DNA from: Candidatus Micrarchaeota archaeon
Lineage (GTDB): Archaea > Micrarchaeota > Micrarchaeia > Anstonellales > Bilamarchaeaceae
Direction: 5' to 3'
DNA: 34,611 bases
Assembly (NCBI GenBank): GCA_964479815.1
Contig: CAYZNP010000001.1
Coordinates: 1 to 34,611 of the forward strand
The position numbers and the translations under genes were made by a program. The notes under the pieces were generated by a model that searched no databases, was not told where the DNA came from, and saw nothing but the letters and a program-made list of their open reading frames with translations. Within the stretch, counting starts at the first letter, position 1, and each line of letters opens with the position of its first letter. This document shows, one piece after another, positions 12,120-29,728 of this stretch.

Positions 12120-12142
12120 CAGCGAGCGGGCAAGTGTTTTCC

Positions 12143-12679
12143 ATGGAGAAACTGCGGATTGAAGGCCAGCGCATATGCCTGCGCCCAGTAGCGGTTTCCG
12201 ATGTGGACGGGCCCTACTGCGGCTGGATGAACGACCCTGCAGTCACGCGCTTCCTTGAAGCGCGCTTCTCGAAGAACGACAAGGCATCCCTGAAGAAATT
12301 CGTGCAGCGTGCGCTGGAAAACAAGGACATCGTCTTCCTCGCCATAGTCCTGAAGGACGGCAACAGGCACATCGGCAACATCAAACTCGGGCCGATAAAC
12401 CGGGAGCACGGCTACGGCGACGTCGGCATAATCATAGGAGAGAAGGACTGCTGGGGGAAGGGGTATGCCACCGAAGCCCTGAAGCTCCTGTCTGATTACG
12501 CCTTCCAGAAGCTCAAGCTTCACAAACTGACCGCAGGCTGCTATTCAAGCAACACCGCTTCGGCGAAGGCATTCCTCGCCGCTGGGTTCGACCAGGAAGG
12601 CATCAGGAAAAGCCACTACCTCTGCGAAGGAAAATACGTGGACGGGCTGCTTTTCGGGAAGGTCAATCTTTATATGTGA
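12143..12679 (+). CDS. GNAT-family N-acetyltransferase (RimJ/RimL-like)
   Basis: LRPVAVSDVDGPYCGWMNDPAVTRFL, then IGNIKLG...GDVGIIIGEKDCWGKGYATEALKLL and the CYSSNTASAKAFLAAGF motifs. The ATG at 12143 is preferred to the GTG at 12134 on promoter spacing. Confidence 0.75.
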   Translation: MEKLRIEGQRICLRPVAVSDVDGPYCGWMNDPAVTRFLEARFSKNDKASLKKFVQRALENKDIVFLAIVLKDGNRHIGNIKLGPINREHGYGDVGIIIGEKDCWGKGYATEALKLLSDYAFQKLKLHKLTAGCYSSNTASAKAFLAAGFDQEGIRKSHYLCEGKYVDGLLFGKVNLYM

Positions 12680-14709: not shown

Positions 14710-15873
14710 ATGACAGAGGGACCGGAACGGTGCAGTGTTTACACCGCGTCCACCCCGCTCTTGGTCCTACTCGCCACGGGCACTGCCTCCTTCCAGGACA
14801 AGAACCGGATTAAATACCTCATCCTTCCCTTCGACTTCCGCGGTGCGGACCGATTCAGGGACGCGCTCGAGCGGTGGAAGGGCAATCCATTCTCCCGCAT
14901 ACTGCTCCTCGAAGGCCAATACGGCAAGGTTCAGGTGCGTTTCGGGGCGATACGGCGGGCCGTCGCCAGCAGGAAGAACATAGGCGCGCTGAGGGCTTTT
15001 TTCGCAAGCGAGCCCACGCTTGCGCAGGGCTTCGATGCCTTCATATCCGCGGTGGAAAAACCCGAGGGGCAGTTCATAGGCCACGTGAACCGGCAGCGGG
15101 GAGGCACCAACTATCATCTGGGCGGCATGGGCGCCTACCTGTCCGATTACCTTGTCGAGTCCCGCTGGCGGACACTGCTGAAGAAAGCTATCTACGGCCC
15201 CTGGTATTCCCATGCGCCTTCCTACCCTGACTACGCGTATATAGACAAGCTCGTCATCATACGCCCGGACCTGGTTGCGAAAGGCGCGCTGGGCAAGGGC
15301 GCGGCCGGAAAGGAGGTGGTCCCGCTCCCGCAGGACCTGTTCGTCCGCCTTGCTGGTGCAGGGCTCGCCGCCGAAATCCTGAAGGAATGGGGTATCGGCC
15401 GGCTTCCAGAATGGGACGTGTTCATAATTGCGCCGCTGTCCGAGATGAATGCGCAGCTGGGGGGCGTGGAAAGGCTGAAGGCCCTTTTCGGCCGGCTGCT
15501 TGACGCGCTTGGAAAAAGCGGCAGGCGGACGCTGTTCAAATACCACCCGAGAGAGGAGCTCGGCGACTTTCTGGGCGCTGAGGGGAGGCCGGGCGTGAGC
15601 ATGGCGCCAGCGGCCATACCCTCCGAGATACTGTGCATGTGCAGCAGGTCCGGCAGGGGGAAGACGGCGGTGAGCGACGTCTCAACAGCGCTGTTCCTTT
15701 TCAAGCTCATGAATCCTGAAGCCGTGGCAATATCCATAATGGGCGTCCTCGGTTACCAGTACGCCGAAACCGAGGAAGTCTTCCTCAGCTGCGGCATACT
15801 GATACCAAAGACCATGGAAGAGCTGGAAGCCCTTGCCGTGCGGCAGGAAAAGCGGCCCGCTAGAGCCCGTTGA
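14710..15873 (+). CDS. Uncharacterised 387-aa protein; candidate CMP-sugar-dependent (sialyltransferase-like) glycosyltransferase
   Basis: No classical GT2/GT4 motifs. The N-terminus VYTASTPLLVLLATG, the segment FIIAPLSE, then LFKYHPREE and AIPSEIL recall the HP-motif region shared by bacterial sialyl/Kdo transferases (GT38/GT52/GT80 type). This is recognition by eye only. Confidence 0.35.
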   Translation: MTEGPERCSVYTASTPLLVLLATGTASFQDKNRIKYLILPFDFRGADRFRDALERWKGNPFSRILLLEGQYGKVQVRFGAIRRAVASRKNIGALRAFFASEPTLAQGFDAFISAVEKPEGQFIGHVNRQRGGTNYHLGGMGAYLSDYLVESRWRTLLKKAIYGPWYSHAPSYPDYAYIDKLVIIRPDLVAKGALGKGAAGKEVVPLPQDLFVRLAGAGLAAEILKEWGIGRLPEWDVFIIAPLSEMNAQLGGVERLKALFGRLLDALGKSGRRTLFKYHPREELGDFLGAEGRPGVSMAPAAIPSEILCMCSRSGRGKTAVSDVSTALFLFKLMNPEAVAISIMGVLGYQYAETEEVFLSCGILIPKTMEELEALAVRQEKRPARAR

Positions 15874-16438
15874 AGCGCACGACGTCCTTCAGCCTTCTTT
15901 TTGGCACCATGAGGGTTCTCCCTTCCAGGAAATATGCGGTGCTGCCGCCTGGCCCGCCCATGTCTAATGCCTTCGATTTCCAGGCAGGATAGCCGAGCGC
16001 CACCGCCAGGGTGAATGCGTAACGGCTGCCAGTCCCAAGCAGCTCCGCAGCCTTCCGGCCGTCTGCCACTGCCAGACAGCACGAACCAAGGCCGGACGCG
16101 GTGGCAGCAATCATGATGCTCTGGGCCGCAAGGCCTGCGTCGTATTCGTAGCCTGACTGCCTTATCTCCCTGTCTGCGAGTATGAAAATGTATGCCGCAG
16201 GCGCCTTTCCAGGCGGCTGCTTCCAGCCTGGCAGCCTGGCCGCCCACCTGAACGCGGCGCCTGCCTTCGTTGCCAGTTCAGGGTCGTCCACGACGAGGAA
16301 GACTAGCGGCTGGAGGTTGGCTGCGGTTGGCGCGAGCCGCCCTGCATCACATACTCTTCCCAGCACCTTCCTGGTGATTTTGCGCGCTGTAAATTCGCGT
16401 ATGGCCCTTCTCCTGATTATCGCGTCATAGGCGTCCAT
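15860..16438 (-). CDS. Nitroreductase-family flavoprotein
   Basis: RRRAIREFTARKI...L..V.DAGRLAPTAANLQPLVFLVV is the typical nitroreductase N-terminal signature. 192 aa. It overlaps the convergent gene by 14 nt. Confidence 0.8.
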   Translation of the reverse strand: MDAYDAIIRRRAIREFTARKITRKVLGRVCDAGRLAPTAANLQPLVFLVVDDPELATKAGAAFRWAARLPGWKQPPGKAPAAYIFILADREIRQSGYEYDAGLAAQSIMIAATASGLGSCCLAVADGRKAAELLGTGSRYAFTLAVALGYPAWKSKALDMGGPGGSTAYFLEGRTLMVPKRRLKDVVRFNGL

Positions 16439-17434: not shown

Positions 17435-17508
17435 GTACGGCGCCAAAACGATTGTTTCATTATTCAATATATATTGTTTCAGCTCCATGAAACACAAGAG
17501 GTGAAGAT

Positions 17509-18219
17509 ATGAAACTGATAATAATAGCAGGACCGTCTTCGTCAGGCAAGACCGCCGTGGCAAAGCAGGTCATAAGGAAGCTGCAGAAGGATGATAAAAT
17601 CTCCTACCTGAAGATAGACGTCGTCAGGGCGTTCGAGGACGAGGAGATACGCAAGGAATTCGGGATTCCGGCCAAGAAAATATATTCCGGGGACCTGTGC
17701 CCTGACCATGCCGGCGTGATGGTGATCGGCGATGCCATAGACTGGGCCGAGAAGAACGGCTCCACCCTGCTTCTCATCGAAAGCGCAGGCCTGTGCCTCC
17801 GCTGCTCCCCCTACCTGACGCAGGGGCTCGGCATAGTGACCCTCAGCGCAGAAAGCGGCATGAACACGCCGCTGAAGATGGGCGCGATGCTCGGGCTCGC
17901 GGACCTGGCGGTGGTCACGAAGATTGACCTGGTTTCCCAGGCAGAGCGCGAGGTTTTCAGGGAAAAGATAAAGGAGGTCCGGGGCGACATGAAGATAATA
18001 GAGACCAACGCGCTCCAGGGCACTGCCATAGAGAGGCTTGCCGATGCGGTCCGTGAATCAAAGGATATAGACCCCAAGAACCTCTATCTCAAGGGCACGC
18101 CCCCGCTGGGAACGTGCACGCTGTGCGTGGGCATCAAGAAGATTGGATGGAAAAACCACTTCGGCGTCATACGCAAGCTGGAAGGCGGCGTGGCCGATTA
18201 CATGTACCGCGGGGAATGA
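17509..18219 (+). CDS. G3E-family (HypB/UreG-like) P-loop GTPase metallochaperone with a C-terminal CxxC extension
   Basis: Walker A GPSSSGKT. SGDLCPDHAGVM resembles the HypB GxCHLDAHM metal site. LLLIESAGLCLRCSP resembles ENVGNLVCP. VVTKIDL is the NKxD equivalent. There is an extra roughly 45-aa tail with GTCTLCVG. A strong Shine-Dalgarno, GAGGTGA, lies 5 nt upstream. Confidence 0.7.
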   Translation: MKLIIIAGPSSSGKTAVAKQVIRKLQKDDKISYLKIDVVRAFEDEEIRKEFGIPAKKIYSGDLCPDHAGVMVIGDAIDWAEKNGSTLLLIESAGLCLRCSPYLTQGLGIVTLSAESGMNTPLKMGAMLGLADLAVVTKIDLVSQAEREVFREKIKEVRGDMKIIETNALQGTAIERLADAVRESKDIDPKNLYLKGTPPLGTCTLCVGIKKIGWKNHFGVIRKLEGGVADYMYRGE

Positions 18220-18230
18220 GGTGCATCTGC

Positions 18231-18887
18231 ATGACTACGAAAATAAACTGGAAGCCGCCGGGAAAGAACTGCGGCATGTGCGGCGCGAAGAGCTGCGCTG
18301 AGCTGGTAAGGCTGGTCCAGGAAGGGAAGAAGGACCCGGGAGAGTGCCCGTTCTACAGCTCGGATCAGGGCGGCATATGCGAAGTGAAGCATGACTACGG
18401 CACCAAGGACGTCCTGGGCGCGGAGTTCGATTTCGTGCTCGAGTCGCTGCCCGGCGAGAAGTCATCGCGCAAGATTGTGCTGCCTTTCCGCGGAGACCTC
18501 GTGGAGAAGATGGGCATAAAGAAGGGCGATATAGTGCTCGGCAGGCCCATGGGTCAGGGTTGCCCGCTCCAGCATGTGATTGAGGTGATTGACGCGGATC
18601 CGATCAGCGGCGTCATAACCGGCTGGGTGGTTGGGCCGAAGTTCGCGCGCGACAGGGCCGCAGCCAGCATCAAGGACGTGAAGGCCTACCATGTCATTGC
18701 CTTCGAGGGCATCGCCCGCAAGGTGAAGCGCGACCCCATATTCGGCCTGCGGCAGCGCTTCCTGCCAGGCTACTGCATGATGGGCCTGGGCCACACCGCA
18801 GTGGTCAACACGGTCCTCAAGCGCGACGACGGGAAAATATTCGTGCACCTGGAGGACATCCGGGTGGGAGTGGCATGCAGCCCCTGA
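18231..18887 (+). CDS. Fe-S protein: N-terminal RnfB/CFeSP-type [4Fe-4S] motif plus a roughly 175-aa domain of unknown function
   Basis: PGKNCGMCGAKSCAELVRLVQEGKKDPGECP gives exactly Cx2Cx4Cx16C. I do not recognise the rest of the protein. GAGGTG lies 7 nt upstream of the ATG at 18231. An alternative ATG at 18216 overlaps the upstream stop (ATGA). The track start at 18114 was rejected. Confidence 0.65.
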   Translation: MTTKINWKPPGKNCGMCGAKSCAELVRLVQEGKKDPGECPFYSSDQGGICEVKHDYGTKDVLGAEFDFVLESLPGEKSSRKIVLPFRGDLVEKMGIKKGDIVLGRPMGQGCPLQHVIEVIDADPISGVITGWVVGPKFARDRAAASIKDVKAYHVIAFEGIARKVKRDPIFGLRQRFLPGYCMMGLGHTAVVNTVLKRDDGKIFVHLEDIRVGVACSP

Positions 18888-18925: not shown

Positions 18926-19963
18926 ATGGCAAAAGTGAAGCTCGGGAAACGATTTGTGGGCGATGGAGAGCCCTGCTACGTGGTATTCGAATGCGGGGCT
19001 ACTTTCAACGGCCTGGAGGGCGCTAAGAAGCTCGTCAAGGCCGCGGCAGATGCTGGCGCGGACGCCATAAAGTTCCAGGTGCTGGACCCGGACCGCCTCA
19101 TGGGCGACCACAGCCTCACAATATCCTATACCACAGCCACAGGCCCTAAGACCGGCAACCTCTACGACATCCTTAAGAAGCGCGTGCTCACGAAGGCGCA
19201 GTGGAAGGAGCTTAAGAAGCATGCGGACCAGCAGGGCATAACCTTCTGCGCCACAGCCTCCTTCCCCGACGAGGTGGACTTCCTGGTGGAAATCGGCTCT
19301 GCGGCCATCAAGATAAACGCCGGCGACGTCAACCACTACTATCTCATAGATTACGCATCGAAAAAGAAGGTGCCCATGATGCTCGACGGCAGGGCGAAGT
19401 ACGACGAGCTGGAAAAGGCAGTGGAGATATGCGAGAAGAACGGCAACAGGAACATAGTGATAATGCACTGCCCGTCCGGCTACCCTGCCCGCAACGACGG
19501 CGTGAATCTAAGCACGCTTTCCTCGCTTAAGGAGATATACGACTACCCCATAGGCTTTTCCGACCATTCGCGGGAGAAACTCATGAACTACCCAGCCATG
19601 GTGATGGGCGCGGACATCCTGGAGAAGACACTCACGCTCAACAAGAACGCCGAGGGCATCGAGCACCTCATGTCCCTGGAGCCCAAGGAGGCGAAGGAGT
19701 TCGTGGCTGAGGTCCGTGCCATAGAGGAGGCCATCGGCTCGCCCCGCATCATGTTCAGCAAGAAGGTCAATGACTCGGCCAGGCGGAGCATCGCCGCGTC
19801 AAAAGACATCGCGGAGGGCGAGGAAATAACGCTCAAATCCATAGAGTTCAGGCGCCCGGGCAACGCCGGCGTCTCCTGCGCGGACTATGAGGCCGTATGT
19901 GGCAGGAAGGCGGCGAGGCACATCAGGAAGGACGAGTTCATCACCTGGGAGATGCTGGCCTGA
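18926..19963 (+). CDS. Divergent NeuB-family nonulosonic acid synthase (TIM barrel plus C-terminal SAF/antifreeze-like domain)
   Basis: CYVVFECGATFNG...AGADAIKFQ, IMHCPSGYP, IGFSDHS, LEKTLTLNK...EHLMSLEP, and a C-terminal RRSIAASKDIAEGEEIT (SAF). The canonical E-x-G-x-NH-x-G motif is replaced by ECGATFNG. The ATG at 18926 follows AAAGGTG. The track start at 18917 is GTG. Confidence 0.75.
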   Translation: MAKVKLGKRFVGDGEPCYVVFECGATFNGLEGAKKLVKAAADAGADAIKFQVLDPDRLMGDHSLTISYTTATGPKTGNLYDILKKRVLTKAQWKELKKHADQQGITFCATASFPDEVDFLVEIGSAAIKINAGDVNHYYLIDYASKKKVPMMLDGRAKYDELEKAVEICEKNGNRNIVIMHCPSGYPARNDGVNLSTLSSLKEIYDYPIGFSDHSREKLMNYPAMVMGADILEKTLTLNKNAEGIEHLMSLEPKEAKEFVAEVRAIEEAIGSPRIMFSKKVNDSARRSIAASKDIAEGEEITLKSIEFRRPGNAGVSCADYEAVCGRKAARHIRKDEFITWEMLA

Positions 19964-20829
19964 TGCTCTGGGCGCTCCTCTGCCTGCTGGCCGCAGTTGC
20001 GTCCACCGGCGCCATCGTCGTGAGCAAGCGGCTTGCGCAGGAGTGCGACCTGTTCCATGTGGCTGCCGCGCAGTTCTTTTTCACCGCGCTGTTCCTCGTG
20101 CCTGCCGCGGCCCTTATGCCAGCGCCGCCCGAAGGCTATGCGCTTCCGTTGCCCGCGGCCGGGGCGATTTTGCTGGCCGCGCTCCTGAACGTGTCCTCGG
20201 TTTACATATATCTCCGGGCGATAAAGTCCGGCAGCATATCTATCCTGGTGCCGCTCAGGAACACCACCCCGCTTTTCGTGGCGTTTCTAGCCATCGTGCT
20301 CCTCTCCGAGCAGGTGACTGCGACTGTGATCGGCGCGGCGCTGCTCATAGTTGCCGGCGCTGCGCTGCTCAACCAGGCTAGGGAGAAAGGCAAGGCAGCG
20401 CTCGCCCGCGGCGCCGGCGCCGCGCTACTGGTCGCGCTCATGGCCGCATTCGTGTTCATCATCGTGAAATACATAACAACCATCTCCGGCCCGGTACCAT
20501 ACCTTGTATTTTCTTCCCTCGCGGCCGCGGTCATCTCAGGTGCATTCCTGGCGCTCGCACCTGGCCTGCAGCCTTTCGTCCATGCCGCCAGGCGCCATGG
20601 CCGCGCGTTCCTGCTGCTGGGCATCCTTGCCGCAGCCGCCTCGCTTGCCACGGTGTACGCCATCTCCCTGGAAAAGGCGTCGGTGGTGTCGACCTTCCTG
20701 CGGGTGGAGCTGCTCTTCGCAGTGGCAGCCGGCGCTCTGTTTTTTAAGGAAGAAGTGGGGATATCAAAGATCGCAGGGGCCCTCCTAGTGCTTGCGGGGC
20801 TCGTGCTGGTAATCATGAGAGGCGGCTGA
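19963..20829 (+). CDS. EamA/DMT-superfamily transporter (about 10 TM)
   Basis: Two hydrophobic EamA-like repeats, ending in the typical AGALLVLAGLVLV tail. The ATG at 19963 overlaps the upstream stop (ATGA). The track start at 19897 was rejected. Confidence 0.7.
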   Translation: MLWALLCLLAAVASTGAIVVSKRLAQECDLFHVAAAQFFFTALFLVPAAALMPAPPEGYALPLPAAGAILLAALLNVSSVYIYLRAIKSGSISILVPLRNTTPLFVAFLAIVLLSEQVTATVIGAALLIVAGAALLNQAREKGKAALARGAGAALLVALMAAFVFIIVKYITTISGPVPYLVFSSLAAAVISGAFLALAPGLQPFVHAARRHGRAFLLLGILAAAASLATVYAISLEKASVVSTFLRVELLFAVAAGALFFKEEVGISKIAGALLVLAGLVLVIMRGG

Positions 20830-21855
20830 ATGGAAATGCCAAAGGAGCTCAGGGACGCGGTAGAGGCCGAATACCACTCGCTCGGCAGCATAGGGAGCTG
20901 GGCGGACGCAGGCGGCCACGCCATAAACAGCAAGAATTACGTGCTCACTTTCGCAGGTGGCAAAAAGCTGCTCTGCAAATACCTGGAAGGGGCGGACGAG
21001 GGCCGCCTCAGCTCACTGCTCGCCATCCTGGAGTTCTGCAGGAAAAAGGGCGCGAAGGTGCCCGCCCTGGCCCCATCGGATTCCGGAAGGGAAATCTGCA
21101 CGCACGGCCAGGGGCTCTTCTACCTCCGTGCCTTCCATGAGGGCGGATACTTCAGCGGCGGCATGGGAGAACTGGAGGATTTCGCCTCGTCGCTGGCAAA
21201 GCTCCACCACATACTCAAAGCATGCACGCTTGAATATCCGCTTTCTGCCCCGCAAAAAACCCACCTGCGCAAGTACGTGCACCCCAAGCCCGAGGAACTG
21301 GAGCGCATCAGGTCAGCGGCAGGGAGTAGCCATGCGGACGTGGACCGGCTTTTCCTCGCCAATTTCGATTTCCTGAAGTCAGAGTACGCTTCGGATGCCG
21401 GGCGGGAGCGCGGCATTGACCGGAGCAGGATACGCGAGCAATACGTGCACGGGGACCTCCATCCCCTCAACGTCATCTTCAATGGCGGCAGGACCGAGGC
21501 CATACTGGATTTCGACGGCCTTTCACACGGGGCACTGGCGTATGACGTCTCCTTCGCGTGCTTCCGCTTTGCCATGTACGGCGGCAAGGACAGCATGGCC
21601 GACATGAAAACCGCTGCGGCGCGTGCAAGGGTGTTCCTGGGGGCCTACGAGGCTAAAAATCCCCTGGACAAGGAGGAGCGCAGGCTTATCGGCCATTATT
21701 TCATCCACGAGTGCCTCAACCGCATAAGTTATATTCTTAGGGATAAAACAGATACTGGCGCGTGGAATTCCGATCTACGCAGGCAGTTGGATTATCTTAA
21801 CATGGCCAAGGCCATGAAAATAGAAAGACTGCTGGGGACTGGTGACAATGGCTAA
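20830..21855 (+). CDS. APH/choline-kinase-fold phosphotransferase (small-molecule or sugar kinase)
   Basis: Catalytic loop HGDLHPLNVIF (HxDxxxxN) followed by ILDFDG (DFD metal-binding). 341 aa. The start abuts the upstream stop. Confidence 0.7.
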   Translation: MEMPKELRDAVEAEYHSLGSIGSWADAGGHAINSKNYVLTFAGGKKLLCKYLEGADEGRLSSLLAILEFCRKKGAKVPALAPSDSGREICTHGQGLFYLRAFHEGGYFSGGMGELEDFASSLAKLHHILKACTLEYPLSAPQKTHLRKYVHPKPEELERIRSAAGSSHADVDRLFLANFDFLKSEYASDAGRERGIDRSRIREQYVHGDLHPLNVIFNGGRTEAILDFDGLSHGALAYDVSFACFRFAMYGGKDSMADMKTAAARARVFLGAYEAKNPLDKEERRLIGHYFIHECLNRISYILRDKTDTGAWNSDLRRQLDYLNMAKAMKIERLLGTGDNG

Positions 21856-22549
21856 GCGCATGGATAATCTCTGCATAATCCCGGCCAGGGGAGGCTCCAA
21901 GAGGATTCCGCGGAAGAATGTTGCGGAACTCTGCGGCAAGCCCCTCATCGCCTACACCATAGAGGCAGCCCTGCGCTCAGGCCTGTTCGGCGCAGTGGTG
22001 GTATCCACGGACGACGCTGAGATAGCGTCGGTTTCCCGCAGGTACGGCGCCGAAGTGATGGACCGCAGCAGCAGGCTCAGCGGCGACAGGGCCACGGTCA
22101 TAGATGTCTGCCTTGATGTCGTCGCCAGGTGCAAGAAGCAGGGCAGGCGCTTCAGGCGCCTGTGCATCCTCCTCCCAACCAGCCCGCTGCGTGATGCTGA
22201 CGACCTGCGCGCCGCGTTCAGGAAGTTCAGCAAAAGCAGCGCCAACGCGCTCATGGCAGTGACCACCTACGCGATTCCGCCGTTCTGGGCGCTCAAGGAG
22301 GAGAAGGGCTTCCTTGTTCCCTATTTCGGCCAGGACTGCATGGTGAGGAGCCAGGACCTGCCGGAGGTTTTCGTTGACAATGGCGCCATATACCTGTTCG
22401 ACATGGGCGCTTTCATGAAGGAGAAGCGCTTCTACTGCTCCAAGCTCGTGGCGTTCAGGATGCCCAGGGAGAAATCCGTGGACGTTGACACGCCTGCAGA
22501 CCTGAGCATGGCGGGGTTTTTCCTAAGGCAGAGGAGGCGCGGAAAATGA
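21848..22549 (+). CDS. CMP-nonulosonic acid synthetase (acylneuraminate cytidylyltransferase family)
   Basis: CIIPARGGSKRIPRKN, GKPLIAYTIEAA, LLPTSPLR, and NGAIY are classical NeuA/PseF/LegF motifs. The start is ambiguous: GTG 21842, ATG 21848 or ATG 21860. Confidence 0.8.
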   Translation: MAKRMDNLCIIPARGGSKRIPRKNVAELCGKPLIAYTIEAALRSGLFGAVVVSTDDAEIASVSRRYGAEVMDRSSRLSGDRATVIDVCLDVVARCKKQGRRFRRLCILLPTSPLRDADDLRAAFRKFSKSSANALMAVTTYAIPPFWALKEEKGFLVPYFGQDCMVRSQDLPEVFVDNGAIYLFDMGAFMKEKRFYCSKLVAFRMPREKSVDVDTPADLSMAGFFLRQRRRGK

Positions 22550-23556
22550 TCCTCGGCGTACTCGGATGCGGCTCCATAGGAAAGAGGCACATCGCCAACC
22601 TGCTCGCACTCGGCCTCCAGGTCGTGGCATCCGACCCCTCGGTCCAGGCGCTGGATGAAGTCAGAAAGGCACACGGTATCAGGACGTTCAGCAGCGCGGG
22701 GGCCATGCTCAAGGAAGCCAGCCCGGATGCGGTGCTGGTGTGCACGCCCACCCACCTCCATGCGGCCCATGCGGCGCTGGCGCTTGAGAACGGCTGCCAC
22801 GTATTCATAGAAAAGCCGGTTTCCGACAGGCTGGACGGCCTTGGCAAGCTTGAGGCCCTGGCCAGGAAAAAACGCAGGGTGGCGTTCGTGGCCTGCAACA
22901 TGAGGTTCCACCCTTCGGTCATGCACATGAAGGCAAGGCTGGAAAGCGGCGCCCTCGGAAAGATATACTCCGCCAGGCTGGAATTCGGCAATTACCTCCC
23001 TGACTGGCGGCCCGGAACGGACTACTCCAAGACCTACAGCGCGCACAGGGCACAGGGAGGCGGCATAATCCTGGACGCAGTGCACGAATTCGACTACCTT
23101 TCGTGGCTGCTGGGCGAGCCTTCGGACATCTTCTGCTTCGCAGGACGGCTGGGCGGCCTCAAGATAGACGTGGAGGACGCGGCCGGAGTGCTGGTGCGTA
23201 TGAAGAGCGGTGCAATCGCCGAAGCCCACCTTGACTACCTGCAGAGGAGCAAGAGGCGCTCGTGCCAGTTCATAGGCTCTAAAGGCACGATAATCTGGGA
23301 GAGCACAGGAAAAAACCCGGAGAAGTCAGTCGTCCGGGAATACCTTTCCGCGACCAAGCGCTGGAAGGTGCGTAAGGAGTCCCTCGGCGCCAAAGAGGCC
23401 AATGACATCTACGTGCGGGAGGTCAGGCATTTCATGGACTGCGTGCGCGGCACGGCAAAGCCGGTCTCCACCATAGCTGCCGGAAGGCTTGCGCTGGAGA
23501 TGGCGCTTGCGGCAAGGAAATCAGCGGAAAGCGGGAAGAAGATAGCATTCAAATGA
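22546..23556 (+). CDS. Gfo/Idh/MocA-family NAD(P)-dependent oxidoreductase
   Basis: N-terminal Rossmann LGVLGCGSIGKRH, VCTPTHLH, and the ENGCHVFIEKP (EKP) motif. ATGA overlap with the upstream gene, and a GAGGAGG Shine-Dalgarno. Confidence 0.8.
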   Translation: MILGVLGCGSIGKRHIANLLALGLQVVASDPSVQALDEVRKAHGIRTFSSAGAMLKEASPDAVLVCTPTHLHAAHAALALENGCHVFIEKPVSDRLDGLGKLEALARKKRRVAFVACNMRFHPSVMHMKARLESGALGKIYSARLEFGNYLPDWRPGTDYSKTYSAHRAQGGGIILDAVHEFDYLSWLLGEPSDIFCFAGRLGGLKIDVEDAAGVLVRMKSGAIAEAHLDYLQRSKRRSCQFIGSKGTIIWESTGKNPEKSVVREYLSATKRWKVRKESLGAKEANDIYVREVRHFMDCVRGTAKPVSTIAAGRLALEMALAARKSAESGKKIAFK

Positions 23557-23571
23557 AGATGAGGAGATGGC

Positions 23572-24870
23572 ATGAAGCTGAACACGGACTTTTCACGGAG
23601 CACTGAACTGCTGAAGAAGGCAAAGGAGCTCATACCCACGGCGTCGCAGACCTACAGCAAAAGCTACATGTATTTCTGCGAGGGCGCCGCGCCTGCGTTC
23701 ATGGAACGGGGGAATGGTGCAAGGGTGTGGGACGTGGACGGCAACGAGTACGTGGATTTCGTGCTCGGCCTCGGTGCCATAACCGTCGGCTACAACAACC
23801 CCACCGTCAACGCGGCAATCAAGCGCCAGCTTGCGAAGGGAATCTCATTCTCCCAGCCCAGTCCAGTGGAGGTGGAACTGGCCCTGAAGCTCACCCAGAT
23901 AATCCCCTGTGCCCAGATGGTCAAGCTCGTGAAGAACGGCTCGGACGCGACTTCGGCTGCAGTGAAGCTGGCACGGGCACACACCGGCCGGGACATGGTG
24001 CTCTGCTCCGGCTACCACGGCACAGGAGACTGGTACATCGGCACAACCACCAACAGCCGCGGCGTCCCTGAGGGCGTGAAGAAATTCACGGCAACATTCA
24101 AGTACAACGACATCGAGGGCCTCAAGGCCGTGTTCGCCAAATACCCCGGCCAGGTCGCGGCAGTGATACTCGAGCCCATGCAGGGGGACGGCCCCGCGCC
24201 CGGCTACCTGGAGGCGCTCAGGCAGCTCACCCACGAGAACGGCGCGCTCCTCATATTCGACGAGGTCGTTTCAGGCTTCAGGATGGGCATCGGCGGCGCG
24301 CAGGGCCATTTCAAGGTGACGCCGGACCTGTCCGCTTTCGGGAAAGGCATGGGGAACGGGATGTCCATATCAGCGCTCGTGGGCCGCAGGGACGTGATGA
24401 AGCTCATAGACGAGGGCGTGTTCATATCAAGCACTTTCGGGGGCGAGGCGCTCGCAATAGCAGCTTCGCTTGCCGCCATAGGGCTCCTTGAGAAGCCTGA
24501 AAGCTTCAGGCACATCTGGGCTCTGGGCGAACGCTGGACCGCTGGCGCCCGCAGGCTGGTCGCGGAGAAGGGGCTGGCCGGGGCGGCAAAGGTCACCGGC
24601 GCGCCGCCGCACTGCGGCATGGAGTTCTCTGACAGCGGAAATCTGTCAAAGGCAGACCTGCTGTCCGTCTACCAGCAGGCTGTCATAGCCCGGGGCATAC
24701 TCACCACCGGCATAAACAATTTCTGCCTCGCGCACACAGCCGCGGACATCGACCTCTACCTGGAGGCCGCGTCAGCGGCCCTGGACGACGTGAAAAAGGC
24801 TCTTGACAAGGGAAGCACTGAAGGCATCCTGCGCGGCCAGAAAATCAGGCCGGTATTCAAGAGGCACTAG
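23572..24870 (+). CDS. Class-III PLP-dependent aminotransferase (glutamate-1-semialdehyde aminomutase-like)
   Basis: VKNGSDATSAAVKLAR, LIFDEVVSGFRMG, and AFGKGMGNGMSISA (PLP-lysine region). GAGGAG Shine-Dalgarno. 432 aa. Confidence 0.8.
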   Translation: MKLNTDFSRSTELLKKAKELIPTASQTYSKSYMYFCEGAAPAFMERGNGARVWDVDGNEYVDFVLGLGAITVGYNNPTVNAAIKRQLAKGISFSQPSPVEVELALKLTQIIPCAQMVKLVKNGSDATSAAVKLARAHTGRDMVLCSGYHGTGDWYIGTTTNSRGVPEGVKKFTATFKYNDIEGLKAVFAKYPGQVAAVILEPMQGDGPAPGYLEALRQLTHENGALLIFDEVVSGFRMGIGGAQGHFKVTPDLSAFGKGMGNGMSISALVGRRDVMKLIDEGVFISSTFGGEALAIAASLAAIGLLEKPESFRHIWALGERWTAGARRLVAEKGLAGAAKVTGAPPHCGMEFSDSGNLSKADLLSVYQQAVIARGILTTGINNFCLAHTAADIDLYLEAASAALDDVKKALDKGSTEGILRGQKIRPVFKRH

Positions 24871-25677
24871 TCAGATCTTGTATCTTGGCCTGCGTGGCAC
24901 CTGCACCGTGTAGAATTCGGGCTCGCGGACGTTGATTCCCGCGCTTTTCATGAAGTTCTTCGCCTTGGTCGTGCTCTGCTCTGAATAATGGAAGATGTTG
25001 GCCGCGGACACGGCATCGGCCTTCCCTTCCGCGATGCCATCCACCAGATGCTGCCAGTCGCCCACGCCACCGGACGCTATCACCGGTATGTCGACCGCTT
25101 CAGACACACTCCTCACAAGCCCAAGGTCGTAGCCCTTCCGCATGCCGTCGTTGTCTATGGAAGTGAGGAATATCTCTCCTGCGCCGCGCTTCTCCGCCTC
25201 CTTTGCCCAGGCCGGAGCCGAAAGGCCGGTGGCCGTGCTGCCGCGGTCTATGAAAACCTCATGCCCGCCCCCGGCGTTCCGCTTGGCGTCGATGGACACC
25301 ACGATGCACTGGTTGCCGAAAACCTGCGCCGCCTCCCTGATGAATTCCGGCCGCCGGACAGCCTCGGTGTTGATGGCCACCTTGTCGGCACCCTCGCTGA
25401 GCAGGGTCCTGATGTCAGCGACGCTCCTCACCCACCCGCCCACGGTCAGGGGCACGAAGCACCTGCTGGACAGTTCCCTGAGGTCCTCGTGGAACTTCCC
25501 CCTGCTCCCCTCCTCACGGGTGACGTTCAGGAGCACTATCTCGTCTATAGCCCAGGTGTTGAAGAAATCCACTGCGGTGTAGGCGTTTCCCACGGAATTG
25601 ACGTGCCTGAAGCCCATGCTCTGGACGAGCATCCCGTCCCGCCACAGGAGGCACGCGATGAGGCGGTGCTTAAGCAT
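24871..25677 (-). CDS. HisF-like cyclase subunit (WbuZ-type) of the N-acetyl-sugar amidotransferase system
   Basis: RLIACLLWRDGMLVQS, the DEIVLLNV motif, PLTVGGWVRS, and VIASGGVG are HisF-fold motifs. Co-located with HisH-like and WbuX-like genes, not with his genes. Confidence 0.8.
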   Translation of the reverse strand: MLKHRLIACLLWRDGMLVQSMGFRHVNSVGNAYTAVDFFNTWAIDEIVLLNVTREEGSRGKFHEDLRELSSRCFVPLTVGGWVRSVADIRTLLSEGADKVAINTEAVRRPEFIREAAQVFGNQCIVVSIDAKRNAGGGHEVFIDRGSTATGLSAPAWAKEAEKRGAGEIFLTSIDNDGMRKGYDLGLVRSVSEAVDIPVIASGGVGDWQHLVDGIAEGKADAVSAANIFHYSEQSTTKAKNFMKSAGINVREPEFYTVQVPRRPRYKI

Positions 25678-26347
25678 CCGTTCCGCCCCCCGCCGGCGTT
25701 TTGCCCGCCTGCCTGCTCTTTTTGGCGTAATCGATGAAATTCTTCAGCAGCCTCAGCCCTGCCTTCTGGCTTTTCTCAGGATGGAACTGCACGCCGAATA
25801 TGTTGCCCTTGCGGATGCTCGCGACCACATCCTCGCCATGCCAGCACGTTGATGAGACGGTGCCTTTCTCGCTTTCAGCCGGCTCAAGGAAATAGCTGTG
25901 GACGAAATAGAATACCGGCCCCGTGCCCAGCCCCCCGAAAAGCACCGGGTCTGCCCGCTCCCGGACCGCCACGTCGTTCCAGCCCATGTGCGGGACCTTT
26001 ATGCGCTGGTCCTTCGGCTGGATTTTCCTCACCACCCCTTTCACCCAGCCAAAGCCAGCGTGCTCGCCGTGCTCCAGGCCGCGCTCCGCGAGGAACTGCA
26101 TGCCCAGGCAGATTCCGAGGTAGGGCTTTTTTTTGCCGATGACTTCGGCACGAAGGGTCTCGAGGAAGCCGGCCTTCTTCAGGTTCGCCATGCCGTCCCC
26201 GAAAGCGCCCACGCCCGGCACGACTATCGCATCCGCAGCGGCGAGTGCGGACGGCTCTTTCACTATGGCCACCTGCTCGCCCAGGGCCTCGAACGCGTTG
26301 GCTATGGAGCGCAGATTTCCCATACCGTAATCAACTATGGCAATCAT
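25670..26347 (-). CDS. HisH-like class-I glutamine amidotransferase subunit (WbuY-type)
   Basis: IAIVDYGMGNLRSI, GICLGMQ (nucleophile Cys), and FGVQFHPEKS. The ATG at 26347 with an AGGAG Shine-Dalgarno is preferred. The track start at 26449 would overlap the upstream gene by 41 nt. Confidence 0.8.
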   Translation of the reverse strand: MIAIVDYGMGNLRSIANAFEALGEQVAIVKEPSALAAADAIVVPGVGAFGDGMANLKKAGFLETLRAEVIGKKKPYLGICLGMQFLAERGLEHGEHAGFGWVKGVVRKIQPKDQRIKVPHMGWNDVAVRERADPVLFGGLGTGPVFYFVHSYFLEPAESEKGTVSSTCWHGEDVVASIRKGNIFGVQFHPEKSQKAGLRLLKNFIDYAKKSRQAGKTPAGGGTDA

Positions 26348-26408
26348 ACCGTTTGCTCCTGCATTGCCGGGCGGCCGCCTGCACGCCGGCTCATCTTCGT
26401 TCTCCTGG

Positions 26409-27680
26409 CTATAGCCAGATGTACTCGCTGTCTTCGGGGACGTGGTCATCCCTTGAGTATTTGGGCTGGTTGTGCGACCTCAGGATGCCGCGGTCCGCGA
26501 CCTGCGGTATCCTCGCCTTCTCAACTCCAGGGTCCTTGACATGGTTCGCGACCGAGTCCAGCACCTTCCATCTGCCGTCGCGGCCCTTCTCCCATATTTT
26601 CGGGTCACGCATGGGCTCCACGCAGCTCATGAACTCCTCCTCGCTCATGCCCACGAACTTCAGGAACAGGTCAAGGTCGCTCGGGCGCACGTGGTCGTAC
26701 TTCTTCACCATCTCTATGCCCTCCTCGCGCGTCATCCTGCCGTGCCGTATGTCGTTGCTCGCGTCGTCGGTGGCCCGGCCATAGCCGAACTTCAGGTACT
26801 TCAGGTAGTCGTGCGCGCCGTTCGCGTGTATGTCGTCCAGCTTGTCGTAAAGATGGTACGTCCGCTCCCTCGACACCGCGGTTTCGAACCCGAATTTCTC
26901 TATCATCATGCGTGTCTGCGCCCTCGCATCCCAGCTGATGTAATTGGACAGGTAGATGCCGCGCACGCCGACCGCTTCTATCTCCTCGTCGCTCGGATAG
27001 TAGAACGGCGCGAGGTCCAGCTTTGTGATGCCTCCGTTGTCCGGGTCGTCGAGCACGTCGTCGGGCTCGAACCCCCGCATGCTGTGCTCCTGCCTCACCT
27101 TCTTGGAGAACTCTATCATATCATCCTGGTTGAACATGCCGACCAGCTCGGCAAAGCCGTGCTCGCCCCAGATGATGAGCGGTATCTTGTACATGACCGC
27201 GGCCTTTATCGGGAACGTCATTATGCCTGCGTGGTAGTGCCAGGTTATGTCACCGACCTTCCTGAGCATGTAGCGCGATATCTTCCTGACCGATTCGGGG
27301 TTCGATGTGAACCTGAGAAGGTCGCAGTTGAACTGCTTCAGCATGTTCGTGAGGTTCCTTATGCCCCTCTTGGTGTTGAAGCCGTGGTTGTAGGTAACGA
27401 ACAGGGGGTTGTAGCCGAGGACGTTCTTGATGAAATATGCCTGGAAGTGGCTGTCCTTGCCGCCGCTCACCGGGATTATGCAATCGTAGGGTGAGCCGTT
27501 CGCCCTGGCCTTCGCGCTGTATTCCTTCAGCAGGCCCTTGAGTATCTGCAGCCTCTCGTCCCAGTTCTGTATCTTCGGCCTGCTCTCCTGGAGCCGGCAT
27601 CCGCTGCACACCCCTTCCTCGTCGAATATGATTGTCGGCTTGGCATTTTCAGGGTAAACGCACCTGGCGCAATATCTCAT
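26409..27680 (-). CDS. N-acetyl sugar amidotransferase (WbuX/PseA/PtmG family, PP-loop ATP pyrophosphatase)
   Basis: N-terminal zinc ribbon CARC...CSGC, the PP-loop IIPVSGGKDSHFQAY, and a size of 423 aa. Gene order with the HisH/HisF-like partners is as in the WbuXYZ acetamidino modules. Confidence 0.8.
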   Translation of the reverse strand: MRYCARCVYPENAKPTIIFDEEGVCSGCRLQESRPKIQNWDERLQILKGLLKEYSAKARANGSPYDCIIPVSGGKDSHFQAYFIKNVLGYNPLFVTYNHGFNTKRGIRNLTNMLKQFNCDLLRFTSNPESVRKISRYMLRKVGDITWHYHAGIMTFPIKAAVMYKIPLIIWGEHGFAELVGMFNQDDMIEFSKKVRQEHSMRGFEPDDVLDDPDNGGITKLDLAPFYYPSDEEIEAVGVRGIYLSNYISWDARAQTRMMIEKFGFETAVSRERTYHLYDKLDDIHANGAHDYLKYLKFGYGRATDDASNDIRHGRMTREEGIEMVKKYDHVRPSDLDLFLKFVGMSEEEFMSCVEPMRDPKIWEKGRDGRWKVLDSVANHVKDPGVEKARIPQVADRGILRSHNQPKYSRDDHVPEDSEYIWL

Positions 27681-27800: not shown

Positions 27801-28427
27801 CTACCTCTCCCCGACAATCACCGCCGAGCGGCCGAATCCTTTCACGAAAATGTTCCTGCCTAGCACCAGGTCCGCCCCCGGCACCCGCAGCACCCGGTAT
27901 GCAGCCGTGGTCCTGAAGCCAGCCCGGGCCAGCAGCCCCTCCCATTCCACAAGGCTCCTCGCATTGCCTGCGGACGCAGGCCCTAGCCCAGCCCCTTCGC
28001 CCGGCGCGTTGGCAAACAGCACGCCGCCCTTCTCCAGGTGGCTGGCAGCGTTCTCCAGGAATTCCGCATGCGATTCCCTGGCGACAAGGCCAAGCGTGCC
28101 GAAGCATGTGATGAGCGCGAACTTCTCATCGAACGGGATTTCCGGGCATTCAGCCTTCTCAAAGCGCATGCCCGGATACCGCTCCCTGCACGTCCTTATG
28201 GCACGGCCTGACTTGTCCATCCCGAAGCATCTTGCGCCCGCCGCGCGGAACCTGGAAAGGAAAAGCCCGAAGCCGCAGCCGACGTCAAGAACTCTCCTGC
28301 CAGCCATCATTTCCGGCCTGATGCCCTCCAGTGCCAGGAGGTCGAGGTTATACCTTGCGTTTGCAGGCTGTGCCCGCTCGTACGTTTCCACATCCCCGGG
28401 CGTTTTGAAATACGCATCTTCAGCCAT
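27801..28427 (-). CDS. Class I SAM-dependent methyltransferase
   Basis: Motif I RVLDVGCGFGLF and post-I FDEKFALITCFG. The ATG at 28427 (MAEDAYF) has GGAG upstream. The track start at 28439 is GTG. Confidence 0.75.
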   Translation of the reverse strand: MAEDAYFKTPGDVETYERAQPANARYNLDLLALEGIRPEMMAGRRVLDVGCGFGLFLSRFRAAGARCFGMDKSGRAIRTCRERYPGMRFEKAECPEIPFDEKFALITCFGTLGLVARESHAEFLENAASHLEKGGVLFANAPGEGAGLGPASAGNARSLVEWEGLLARAGFRTTAAYRVLRVPGADLVLGRNIFVKGFGRSAVIVGER

Positions 28428-28454
28428 GTCAAGGAGCACTCCGCGCCGCCGTTT

Positions 28455-28898: not shown

Positions 28899-28922
28899 CG
28901 ATATTCATCTATGCGGCGGCGG

Positions 28923-28933
28923 TTATAAATTTT
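28923..28933. promoter_or_regulatory. Single shared TATA element (TTATAAATTTT) for divergent leaderless genes
   Basis: Centred about 30 nt from the minus-strand ATG at 28898 and about 24 nt from the plus-strand ATG at 28952. The spacer is 53 nt. Confidence 0.5.
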
Positions 28934-28951: not shown

Positions 28952-29728
28952 ATGGACTGGCGCCTCATAATATACACCCCTGCCTATAACGTCGCTGATT
29001 CGGTTCCCGAACTGCTTGCCCGGACGAGGAAGTGCGCTGCCGCGCTTGCACGCATCGGCGTCGCGCTGGAATCGCTCATTGTCATAGAGGATGGCAGCAG
29101 CGACGGCACCGCAGCCCTGCTGGACGCCGAGGCACGCAGGACGCCTTTCCTGCGCGTGGTCCACCGGCAAAAGAACCAGGGCCCTGCCTCTGCGGTGCTG
29201 GACGGCATGCGCCGCGCACTGGCTGCCGCAGGCGCAGGCCCGGAAAGGGTGATACTCGTCCGCATGGACGCCGACCTTGAGCACCAGCCCGAGGACATCC
29301 AGAAGGTCATAGCGCCGGTCATTTCCGGCAGAAGCCGGATTTGCGTCGGCTACATAAGGTATGACAACCGCAACGGCCTGCTCTTCAGGATATTCAACGA
29401 ATGGGCAGGGGGAAGCGAGGGGAGGAGGTCCGCCGGGGTTGCGATGCCGCAGTTCTGCCCTGGCTTCCATGCCGTGCGCGCAGACCTTTTCAGGGAGCTT
29501 TTCCCGCAGCTAGAGGCGCAGCTGGACGGGTTCAGGAAACAGACAGGCAAGGAAATGGTCACCCTGGACGTCGCATTGCTTGCCCTCGCCAGGAAATCTG
29601 GCGAGAAGAGTGCCGTGGTGGAGCTGCGGCCGATAGAGGCCAGGTGGATAAAGAAGCAGCCGCTTTCCAAGCTGCTGCGCTACCTAGATATGCACAGGCT
29701 CACCATGCGCTTCCTTGGGGATCGCTGA
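28952..29728 (+). CDS. Glycosyltransferase family 2
   Basis: IIYTPAYNVADSVPELL, VIEDGSSDGT, QKNQGPASA, and VRMDADLEHQPEDI (DxD). 258 aa. Confidence 0.75.
   Translation: MDWRLIIYTPAYNVADSVPELLARTRKCAAALARIGVALESLIVIEDGSSDGTAALLDAEARRTPFLRVVHRQKNQGPASAVLDGMRRALAAAGAGPERVILVRMDADLEHQPEDIQKVIAPVISGRSRICVGYIRYDNRNGLLFRIFNEWAGGSEGRRSAGVAMPQFCPGFHAVRADLFRELFPQLEAQLDGFRKQTGKEMVTLDVALLALARKSGEKSAVVELRPIEARWIKKQPLSKLLRYLDMHRLTMRFLGDR

Follow-up and report, generated by a model that had tools for sequence, protein, structure and literature searches.

The stretch analysed here, contig CAYZNP010000001.1 of a Candidatus Micrarchaeota archaeon (34,611 nucleotides, the whole of which is referred to as the window), is a 34.6-kb glycan-biosynthesis island with a G+C content near 0.59, and the subject of this report is an operon at positions 18926-24870 headed by a divergent member of the NeuB family of nonulosonic acid (NulO) synthases, here termed NeuBx. 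Six consecutive open reading frames (ORFs) on the plus strand encode NeuBx, an EamA-family transporter, a kinase of the APH fold, a cytidylyltransferase (PseF), a Gfo/Idh/MocA oxidoreductase and a class-III aminotransferase, each with a significant Pfam match (Table 1). A preliminary description of this DNA had recognised the six genes as tightly coupled by ATGA overlaps or gaps of 15 nt or less, and both the genes and their coupling were confirmed as described, apart from the synthase/EamA junction, which is a TGATG with a 1-nt overlap at 19963; the ATGA overlap is found between PseF and the oxidoreductase (22546-22549). The EamA stop (20829) is followed without a gap by the kinase ATG (20830), and 15 nt separate the oxidoreductase from the aminotransferase. 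NeuBx starts at ATG 18926, its mechanical ORF opening at GTG 18917, while the start of PseF is ambiguous, with GTG 21842 and ATG 21848 overlapping the kinase (stop at 21855) and ATG 21860 leaving a 4-nt gap. The aminotransferase stop at 24870 abuts the stop of a convergent HisF-like gene at 24871. A scan for sigma-70 promoters and terminators gave nothing informative within the operon, no tRNA genes were found in the window, and cluster look-ups of the module proteins yielded no names.

NeuBx has the TIM barrel and SAF architecture common to the solved synthases (Neisseria meningitidis NeuB, 1xuu/1xuz; PseI, 8h2c; Bacillus subtilis SpsE, 1vli), with Pfam scores of 212 bits for NeuB and 42.6 bits for SAF. 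Against the NCBIfam equivalogs it reaches 254.0 bits for NeuB (TIGR03569, cut-off 399.65) and 205.8 bits for PseI (TIGR03586, cut-off 340.25), below both cut-offs, and NCBIfam holds no model for its clade. It is about equidistant from solved PseI (8h2c), SpsE (1vli) and NeuB (1xuu, 6ncs), at 115-129 bits. In a neighbour-joining tree, all 55 NeuBx sequences (55/55) were monophyletic to the exclusion of 52 canonical synthases and four PDB references, the PseI of the window grouping with 8h2c. By bit scores and tree alike, NeuBx falls outside every characterised NulO-synthase group compared, in line with the divergence first noticed and not with a place inside a known clade.

The comparison of the 55 NeuBx with the 52 canonical sequences revealed T26, D154 and T235 in 100% of NeuBx (55/55) at positions where N, S and H are found in 100% of canonical synthases (52/52). 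The motifs concerned read ‘TF’ for ‘NH’, ‘D-G’ for ‘S-[TRA]-G’ and ‘EKT’ for the universal ‘E[KR]H’; ‘EKT’ is present in essentially every clade member, while the canonical synthases of the same loci retain ‘EKH’. T235 aligns with His236 of N. meningitidis NeuB (NmNeuB) and D154 with its S154, whereas H214, the equivalent of NmNeuB H215, is retained. In NmNeuB (structure 1XUZ), H215 and H236 are the two histidine metal ligands, His236 being the second manganese ligand, and Ser154 touches the phosphate of phosphoenolpyruvate (PEP). Further residues specific to the clade are D134 in place of the canonical E (55/55, at NmNeuB position 134), R86 (98%), W93, P183, G185 and E246-H247 in place of the canonical D. 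Because E22, K49, K129, D213-H214, E233-K234 and R310 are common to both groups, NeuBx is predicted to be an active enzyme; R310 aligns with NmNeuB R314, described as essential (PMC8208679). With the other catalytic residues and the SAF-domain arginine kept and new invariant residues gained, the active site looks, at the level of sequence, rebuilt and not decayed.

Two neighbouring residues hint that the acceptor sugar of NeuBx may differ from that of PseI, although neither is decisive: Gly133, at a position occupied by Gly in Neu/Leg (neuraminic and legionaminic acid) synthases and by Phe in Pse (pseudaminic acid) synthases (PMC7371886), and D134, at a position where archaeal and eukaryotic synthases typically carry Asp, a substitution tied speculatively to the use of N-acetylmannosamine 6-phosphate (ManNAc-6-P) (PMC8208679). 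No characterised member of the clade was found in the PDB, NCBIfam or the searched literature, and that literature, including a 13,941-sequence synthase phylogeny, made no mention of the substitutions at H236, S154 or the N position. It yielded descriptive mentions only of a second NeuB paralogue, a kinase or a glutamate-1-semialdehyde (GSA)-type aminotransferase in NulO clusters. PLSDB plasmids contained no NeuBx, the matches there being canonical NeuB/PseI at no more than 33% identity. Many clade members are annotated by JGI as ‘N,N'-diacetyllegionaminate synthase’.

The clade is widely distributed, with 976 relatives at E<=1e-20, most of them metagenomic, at identities reaching 79%. A scan of species-representative genomes gave 80 loci, and ORFs were called and clustered over 87 loci; families were counted in 56 non-redundant NeuBx loci, and enrichment was assessed in 62 NeuBx loci against 20 canonical-synthase control loci. 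The closest match in the species-representative scan belongs to an uncultured Methanosarcinales archaeon (68% identical), and other archaeal members come from Aenigmatarchaeota, Woesearchaeota, Nitrosotalea and Nitrosopumilaceae, and Thermoplasmatales. Bacterial members were found in the Candidate Phyla Radiation (CPR)/Patescibacteria, Dehalococcoidia, Verrucomicrobiota, Pirellulales, Omnitrophota, many Alphaproteobacteria, Legionellales and Coxiellaceae, Gammaproteobacteria, and Desulfobacterota.

Families recurring around NeuBx in the 56 loci were PseC (37/56), PseF (36/56), PseB-like proteins (32/56), PseG(-PseH) (28/56), Gfo/Idh/MocA oxidoreductases (21/56), WbuX and HisF (18/56 each), the APH kinase (17/56), the class-III aminotransferase (16/56), a Capsule_synth-like protein of about 480 aa (15/56), PIG-L (13/56), formyltransferase and SpsF-like CTP_transf_3 (12/56 each), and a CysH-like protein of the PAPS_reduct family (9/56). 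A CTP_transf_3 gene, be it PseF or SpsF-like, is present in 45/56 and, where present, usually adjoins NeuBx. The usual proteobacterial order is PseB-PseC-NeuBx-PseF-PseG(H)-PseI, and the archaeal/CPR order is CTP_transf_3-NeuBx-APH(-CysH-like). Among 33 loci flanked by at least 8 kb to either side, 27 carry a second, canonical synthase (20 strongly PseI-like, 7 weaker). In two loci (L008, L010) the distance matrix places this canonical synthase nearer to B. subtilis SpsE, which makes legionaminic acid, than to PseI; NeuBx can therefore occur with Leg-type as well as Pse-type synthases.

Compared with the controls, which are more distant matches of the same scan, NeuBx loci were enriched in the APH kinase (18/62 vs 0/20, Fisher p=0.004), the oxidoreductase (23/62 vs 2/20, p=0.03), PseF (39/62 vs 5/20, p=0.004), WbuX (21/62 vs 1/20, p=0.01) and PseG (32/62 vs 2/20, p=0.001), the p values being indicative only as the loci are not phylogenetically independent. 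The complete set of NeuBx, kinase, class-III aminotransferase, oxidoreductase and CTP_transf_3 gene occurs in six loci, namely the window, L006 (Aenigmatarchaeota), L007 (Nealsonbacteria), L022 (Pirellulales), L023 (Parcubacteria) and L063 (a deltaproteobacterium). The gene order is shuffled among these loci from different phyla, and the set is therefore regarded as a functional unit. The closest relative of the window locus, L001 (synthase 76% identical), has a nitroreductase gene divergent from NeuBx-EamA-APH-PseF-GT2 (GT2 being a family 2 glycosyltransferase), convergent with a Pse-like operon; it lacks the oxidoreductase and the aminotransferase, which are therefore optional tailoring functions.

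The operon of the window likewise faces a Pse operon. The preliminary description had correctly stated that no NeuC/LegG-, PseG-, DegT- or acetylase-type gene lies inside the six-gene unit, but PseB, PseC, a PseH-like GNAT, PseI, WbuX and HisH/HisF are encoded directly downstream on the other strand (Table 1). Of the six enzymes of the Campylobacter and Helicobacter Pse pathway (PseB, PseC, PseH, PseG, PseI and PseF), PseB, PseC, PseI and PseF exceed their NCBIfam cut-offs on this contig, and the PseH-like GNAT, a weak match, aligns with the C-terminal PseH domain of PseG-PseH fusions in other loci. The ‘CMP-sugar synthetase’ of the preliminary description passes the PseF equivalog cut-off (TIGR03584, 213.2 vs 205.7 bits, profile positions 1-218 of 222) and is the sole CTP_transf_3 gene of the window, tblastn with other CTP_transf_3 families matching this place only. 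The island differs from the textbook Pse pathway in that PseF resides in the accessory operon beside an extra synthase with a rebuilt site, in that no PseG was detected on the contig, and in that its kinase, Gfo/Idh/MocA enzyme and class-III aminotransferase are foreign to that pathway.

Table 1. Features of the window, their positions and the evidence on which each assignment is based (Pfam values are E-values; NCBIfam values are bit scores)
Feature	Position	Strand	Evidence
NeuBx, NeuB-family synthase (TIM barrel + SAF)	18926..19963	+	Pfam NeuB 1.1e-62, SAF 9.3e-11; NCBIfam; PDB comparison; clade residues; neighbour-joining tree
EamA/DMT-family transporter (10 transmembrane segments, two repeats)	19963..20829	+	Pfam EamA 4.5e-28
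APH-fold small-molecule kinase	20830..21855	+	Pfam APH 3.1e-13; HxDxxxxN and DxD motifs
PseF-type CMP-nonulosonate synthetase	21842..22549 (start possibly 21848 or 21860)	+	TIGR03584; Pfam CTP_transf_3 3.9e-23
Gfo/Idh/MocA NAD(P)-dependent oxidoreductase	22546..23556	+	Pfam GFO_IDH_MocA N- and C-terminal domains, ~1e-22 each; GxGxxG and EKP motifs
Class-III (GSA-aminomutase-like) pyridoxal phosphate (PLP) aminotransferase	23572..24870	+	Pfam Aminotran_3 1.3e-57
HisF/WbuZ-like, HisH and WbuX N-acetyl-sugar amidotransferase set (acetamidino formation)	24871..27680	-	Pfam; NCBIfam WbuZ 278.9, HisH 221.4, WbuX 352.4 (cut-off 203.2)
S-adenosylmethionine-dependent methyltransferase	27801-28439	-	Pfam
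PseH-like GNAT	28455-28898	-	Pfam; PseH 45 bits vs cut-off 93
GT2 glycosyltransferase	28952..29728	+	Pfam Glycos_transf_2 5.4e-20
Canonical PseI	29730-30782	-	NCBIfam 477.9 vs cut-off 340.25
Canonical PseC	30779-31921	-	NCBIfam 456.5 vs cut-off 423.5
Canonical PseB	31925-33013	-	NCBIfam 485.5 vs cut-off 407.75
Nitroreductase-family gene	15860..16438	-	Pfam; 50% identical homologue directly upstream of NeuBx in L001
GNAT (Acetyltransf_3), family ‘f21’	12134..12679	+	Pfam; recurs in NeuBx loci

These observations are best accommodated by regarding the operon as the accessory arm of one composite Pse-type NulO island, making a second, probably extra-aminated, CMP-activated ulosonic acid, a reading to which we assign a probability of about 0.5. 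Since it shares the island, and at least the CMP-activation step, with the ordinary Pse pathway, the operon is not self-contained. The second pathway originally proposed is not an independent one, given the usual residence of the clade within Pse-type clusters and the presence in this operon of the only cytidylyltransferase of the island. The accompanying suggestion that the operon may make or decorate an unusual nonulosonate remains plausible, as all enzymes of the operon, the transporter excepted, are found together again in distant phyla. Of the interpretation as first put forward, the unusual NulO module and a synthase outside the characterised groups are upheld, whereas independence from the Pse pathway, the uptake logic, a LicA-like kinase and a WbpB/WbpE likeness going beyond the chemistry are not.

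In the proposed mechanism, NeuBx, as a predicted active aldol-type synthase, would use PEP (or a related 2-oxo acid) as donor and condense it with an N-acyl-amino aldose that leaves the PseB/PseC route at a branch point and is distinct from the substrate of PseI, and the resulting second ulosonic acid would be activated with CMP by PseF. The oxidoreductase and aminotransferase would act as a dehydrogenase/transaminase pair, converting a hydroxyl via a keto group into an amine, the likeliest target being the completed ulosonate or its CMP ester, at a carbon such as C8 or C4; hexose C3 appears the less likely site because amination there would be expected to place the nitrogen at the ring-closing C6 of the ulosonate. 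The APH-fold kinase may phosphorylate the substrate or the product of NeuBx, which is the least certain step, and EamA would be a lineage-specific add-on.

Several findings weigh against this proposal. The three replaced residues include those aligned with the second manganese ligand and with the serine touching the PEP phosphate, and NeuBx may not run the canonical reaction at all. In 6 of the 33 fully flanked loci no canonical synthase is present, and there NeuBx may be the sole synthase. Many proteobacterial loci consist of NeuBx and PseF without kinase, oxidoreductase or aminotransferase, making these three optional tailoring genes and not part of the core reaction. The enrichment tests are only indicative for the reason given above, and that of the class-III aminotransferase (18/62 vs 2/20, p=0.13) was not significant. 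Finally, searches for PseG with Pfam and NCBIfam, and with tblastn and hhalign starting from the PseG domains of about 30 fusion proteins, found none in the window, the gap at 28899-29729 included, which leaves even the canonical branch looking incomplete on this contig of only 34.6 kb.

The oxidoreductase has intact GxGxxG and EKP motifs, matches the iolG and archaeal UDP-GlcNAc 3-dehydrogenase models weakly, and finds its best PDB sequence matches in 3q2k (88 bits) and 3q2i (75 bits), both WlbA enzymes. The aminotransferase scores 405.2 bits on PRK06209 (cut-off 486) and matches GSA aminomutase structures at about 236 bits and an aminoglycoside C-6' aminotransferase at 149 bits; its orthologues in NeuBx loci are 42-55% identical. 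A role as HemL (glutamate-1-semialdehyde 2,1-aminomutase) was rejected on account of a score well under the cut-off (TIGR00713, 266.9 vs 527.3) and the glycan-biosynthesis context. The two enzymes resemble WbpB/WbpE (WlbA/WlbC) in pairing a Gfo/Idh/MocA dehydrogenase with a PLP aminotransferase, so that the WbpB/WbpE logic invoked in the preliminary description holds as chemistry; it does not extend to the proteins, the PDB matches being weak and the aminotransferase belonging to fold-type-I class III and not to the DegT/WbpE family.

The kinase has conserved HxDxxxxN and DxD motifs and belongs to a rare family, with 250 relatives at E<=1e-10 among 1.84 billion representatives in an exhaustive HMMER search, the best 42% identical. 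Word-indexed homology searches with the single sequence or an 18-sequence profile were almost empty, and exact-sequence look-ups returned no other contig. Its sole sequence-level match in the PDB is 2ppq (E=0.004). A structure model with a mean confidence (pLDDT) of 93.2 was compared by Foldseek, and the best matches (TM-scores of 0.69-0.75) were the type-II homoserine kinase 2ppq (0.75/0.81), the amicoumacin kinase AmiN, YtaA (a CotS-family spore kinase), and then NahK, the structures of which reach a TM-score of about 0.72 at 14-16% identity. The modelled fold is that of a small-molecule hydroxyl kinase and would leave the substrate unfixed. In most loci that carry it, the kinase lies directly downstream of NeuBx, while EamA homologues stand beside NeuBx only in the window and L001 (2/56 loci); EamA is a lineage-specific insertion between synthase and kinase.

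Several genes further upstream bear on the alternatives below. On the minus strand at 9468-12089 lie, in a row, an epimerase/dehydratase of the short-chain dehydrogenase/reductase (SDR) family (9468-10376), a sugar-1-phosphate nucleotidyltransferase of 243 aa matching mannose-1-phosphate guanylyltransferase, archaeal GlmU and MurU-like enzymes (10369-11100), and a 4,6-dehydratase with 474 bits on the LegB model (cut-off 475), a cluster mate of which at >=90% identity, from a ‘Candidatus ainarchaeum sp.’ metagenome-assembled genome, is annotated LegB (11097-12089). This row may encode the opening steps of a pathway to a 6-deoxy amino sugar, be it of the Leg type or another. The LegB-like dehydratase was also considered as a general partner of NeuBx and dismissed, as it accompanies NeuBx only in L008. 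The ‘f21’ GNAT, a candidate N-acetyltransferase of the NeuBx branch, has homologues of 38-45% identity in L024, L031, L036, L041, L047, L049 and L061, is joined to DegT in a fusion protein of L003 and L005, and occurs in 9/62 NeuBx loci against 0/20 controls.

The transporter and kinase had initially been likened to licB/licA or to NahK/AmgK-type sugar kinases. A system that takes up choline, ethanolamine or a similar amino alcohol and phosphorylates it, so that the glycan acquires a phospho-substituent, would account for a DMT-family transporter directly upstream of an APH-fold kinase, and choline, ethanolamine and aminopropanol kinases are among the structural matches. This is nonetheless highly improbable: LicA ranks low (TM-score 0.55, against 0.75 for type-II homoserine kinase), the operon contains neither a LicC-type nucleotidyltransferase nor LicD, its cytidylyltransferase is of the PseF type (CTP_transf_3), and the transporter is found in one related locus only while the kinase is conserved. 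With EamA in 2/56 loci, the licB-like uptake logic is no conserved feature of the module. NahK is among the structures nearest to the kinase, behind type-II homoserine kinase, AmiN and YtaA, and the MurU-like nucleotidyltransferase gene 10 kb upstream is not conserved with the kinase. A NahK-like kinase figures in another scheme, a Leg-type or salvage pathway with non-orthologous replacements and akin to the salvage of an imported precursor suggested in the preliminary description, in which EamA would import an N-acetylhexosamine, the kinase would form its 1-phosphate as NahK/AmgK do, the nucleotidyltransferase at 10369-11100 would yield the NDP-sugar and the LegB-like enzyme its 4-keto-6-deoxy derivative, with the class-III aminotransferase and the ‘f21’ GNAT replacing LegC and LegH, NeuBx being LegI-like and PseF standing in for LegF. 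The superposition of the kinase on N-acetylhexosamine 1-kinase, the near-threshold LegB score and LegB-annotated cluster mate of the dehydratase with its adjacent MurU/archaeal-GlmU-like nucleotidyltransferase, the Neu/Leg state of Gly133 (PMC7371886), the recurrence of the ‘f21’ GNAT and the union of LegB-like, LegC-like and PtmE-sized genes with NeuBx in L008 all speak for it. We consider it unlikely, given that the LegB-like gene lies 7 kb off on the other strand and is found at >50% identity in one other NeuBx locus only (L008), occurring elsewhere with canonical EKH-type synthases, and that the best structural match of the kinase is type-II homoserine kinase and not NahK. EamA is all but confined to this locus, a hydrolysing 2-epimerase of the NeuC/LegG type (Epimerase_2) is missing from the window and rare in NeuBx loci, and the nucleotidyltransferases of the window (243-247 aa) show no CBS domain match, unlike the LegX/PtmE marker (bioRxiv 10.1101/2022.03.25.485807). 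Nor are other Leg markers evident, the only DegT protein being PseC, which reaches 249 bits on the LegC model (cut-off 420).

A phosphorylated-substrate route analogous to that of animals or Bacteroides would instead have the kinase act like NanK and NeuBx serve as a NANS-like nonulosonate-phosphate synthase, followed by a phosphatase and PseF. The NeuBx-APH pair is conserved in archaea, CPR, Verrucomicrobia, Planctomycetes and a deltaproteobacterium, the clade-specific Arg86 could bind an anionic group, and the invariant Asp134 recalls the speculative ManNAc-6-P link (PMC8208679). Such a route is nevertheless decidedly unlikely, as 38 of the 55 NeuBx sequences come from kinase-free loci and carry the same clade-specific residues, Pse-type precursors are 6-deoxy and offer no 6-OH for phosphorylation, and no HAD phosphatase is conserved with the module. 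Human NANS retains the N, S and H lost in NeuBx, which also counts against it. More radically, NeuBx might have ceased to be a synthase and now serve, as a paralogue, in binding or regulation or as a partner of PseI, or it might be a reversible enzyme with Pse as its substrate, either a pyruvate-type aldolase or an epimerase, with the other genes merely decorating ordinary pseudaminic acid (extra amino, phospho or unusual N-acyl groups). The loss of all three canonical invariants and the co-occurrence of a canonical synthase in 27/33 loci would fit this, and tailoring of finished Pse by cytidylyltransferase-linked oxidoreductases has a precedent in EpaA/EpaB (PMC12053666). It seems improbable in view of the conserved remaining catalytic residues and SAF arginine, the new invariants (D154, E246-H247, R86, W93), the six loci devoid of any other synthase, and the cytidylyltransferase gene that usually adjoins NeuBx, as if the product of NeuBx were to be activated.

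The composite-island reading, with its second, aminated ulosonic acid, can be set beside several known systems. In Acinetobacter baumannii, EpaA (a CTP_transf_3-aldo/keto reductase fusion) and EpaB (an SDR enzyme) convert Pse5Ac7Ac into its 8-epimer (PMC12053666), and the two systems have in common a CTP_transf_3 enzyme genetically coupled to oxidoreductases acting on finished Pse, presumably via a keto intermediate. The present locus differs in its second synthase and in pairing a Gfo/Idh/MocA enzyme with a transaminase, which predicts amination and not epimerisation. Aeromonas group I flagellin islands have an uncharacterised oxidoreductase and a class-III aminotransferase flanking pseF (PMC7874193), and the Legionella pneumophila Sg6/Sg12 O-antigen locus contains an oxidoreductase and a class-III aminotransferase together with a WbuX/HisH/HisF set (PMC3694923). 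Both resemble the window in placing a GSA-aminomutase-like class-III aminotransferase and an oxidoreductase amid pseB/pseC/pseF/pseG/neuB-type genes, and differ in that the oxidoreductase is an aldo/keto reductase and that, by description, there is a single synthase.

CMP-activated ‘higher-carbon’ (C10-type) ulosonic acids have been detected by mass spectrometry (MS) beside the C9 NulOAcAm in Magnetospirillum gryphiswaldense, and at a low level in a Methanococcus sample, with no genes assigned (bioRxiv 10.64898/2026.04.20.719630; PMC8157484). By our own calculation, the ion at 693.2139 implies a sugar mass of 389.180 Da, which fits C16H27N3O8 with three nitrogens; on fragmentation it is reported to lose ammonia, two N-acetyl groups and an O-acetyl group. 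Genomes of Rhodospirillales, Magnetococcales and Methanosarcinales hold the NeuBx clade. It is conceivable, if doubtful, that the NeuBx module is the missing genetic basis for such ulosonic acids outside the Neu/Leg/Pse scheme, a C10-type product being compatible with the rebuilt metal/PEP site, the usual cytidylyltransferase neighbour and the frequent dehydrogenase/transaminase pair. In that event, the condensation catalysed by NeuBx would be unlike that of canonical NeuB in its acceptor, donor or stereochemistry.

Nonulosonic acids cap flagellins, S-layers, capsules and lipopolysaccharides and shape immune recognition and phage sensitivity, and their biosynthesis is thought to rest on three types of synthase, NeuB, LegI and PseI. 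The present analysis shows a fourth, monophyletic synthase clade with three catalytic-site residues replaced, spread over archaea, CPR and several bacterial phyla, and a recurrent module that carries its own kinase family and an oxidation/transamination pair. Should NeuBx make a new sugar acid, present genome-based NulO prediction would mislabel NeuBx loci, and the orphan ulosonic acids detected by MS would become genetically tractable. The rebuilt metal site also constitutes a natural experiment on the NeuB mechanism.

Variation of the module elsewhere gave several minor observations. In L003 (positions 7909-13197 for the whole group) and L005, sulfur-activation genes of the CysD-like and CysN-like kinds lie directly upstream of a 67-68% identical NeuBx; downstream, L003 also encodes a permease of the TauE family, an Rrf2 regulator and a CysH-like protein. 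A protein of about 235 aa of the PAPS-reductase family (‘f16’) is found in L006, L007, L011, L021, L022, L023 and L063, following the APH kinase in several of these loci, and its L023 representative ends in an ECGIH motif. The CysD/CysN/CysH-like neighbours hint that certain forms of the module involve the chemistry of sulfite or sulfate; none of these genes is present in the window. The Capsule_synth protein (PF05159, KpsS/KpsC-like; for example L003:13218-14633 and L052:16456-17934), which has no homologue in the window, is a candidate CMP-ulosonate transferase.

Within the window, the GT2 gene runs antisense inside the minus-strand Pse operon and shares 42% identity with the GT2 encoded after PseF in L001 (L001:6538-7326). 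A 199-aa minus-strand ORF at 28871-29470 was discarded as apparently spurious by its Ala/Arg/Gly/Pro-rich composition, the plus-strand GT2 occupying the gap. The nitroreductase may be an associated neighbour, as it is divergent from NeuBx in L001. The plus-strand interval between it and NeuBx (16571-18887) is occupied by genes for an ATPase of the ABC type, a GTPase resembling HypB/CobW and a protein with an Fe-S domain (PF04060); they stop 38 nt short of NeuBx and are without homologues in the 87 related loci. A plus-strand set at 1832-5609 and 7516-8439, comprising a HAD phosphatase, a nucleotidyltransferase, a SIS isomerase and a GHMP kinase followed by two SDR epimerase/dehydratases, is GDP-heptose-like and suggests a (6-deoxy)heptose in the same glycan; a local heptose pathway feeding a C10 sugar acid was considered and dropped, the GDP-heptose genes (1832-4653) being without homologues in the 87 loci. 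Also on the plus strand, the region 13595-15873 encodes a protein with a polysaccharide-deacetylase domain (13595-14581) and one of 387 aa that matched nothing in Pfam or NCBIfam (14710-15873), neither having a homologue in the related loci. Lastly, a 664-aa ORF on the minus strand (5596-7590), whose sole match is a weak one to PMT_2 (dolichyl-phosphate-mannose transferase-like, E=0.002), possibly encodes a glycosyltransferase in the membrane, or a polymerase, belonging to the island.

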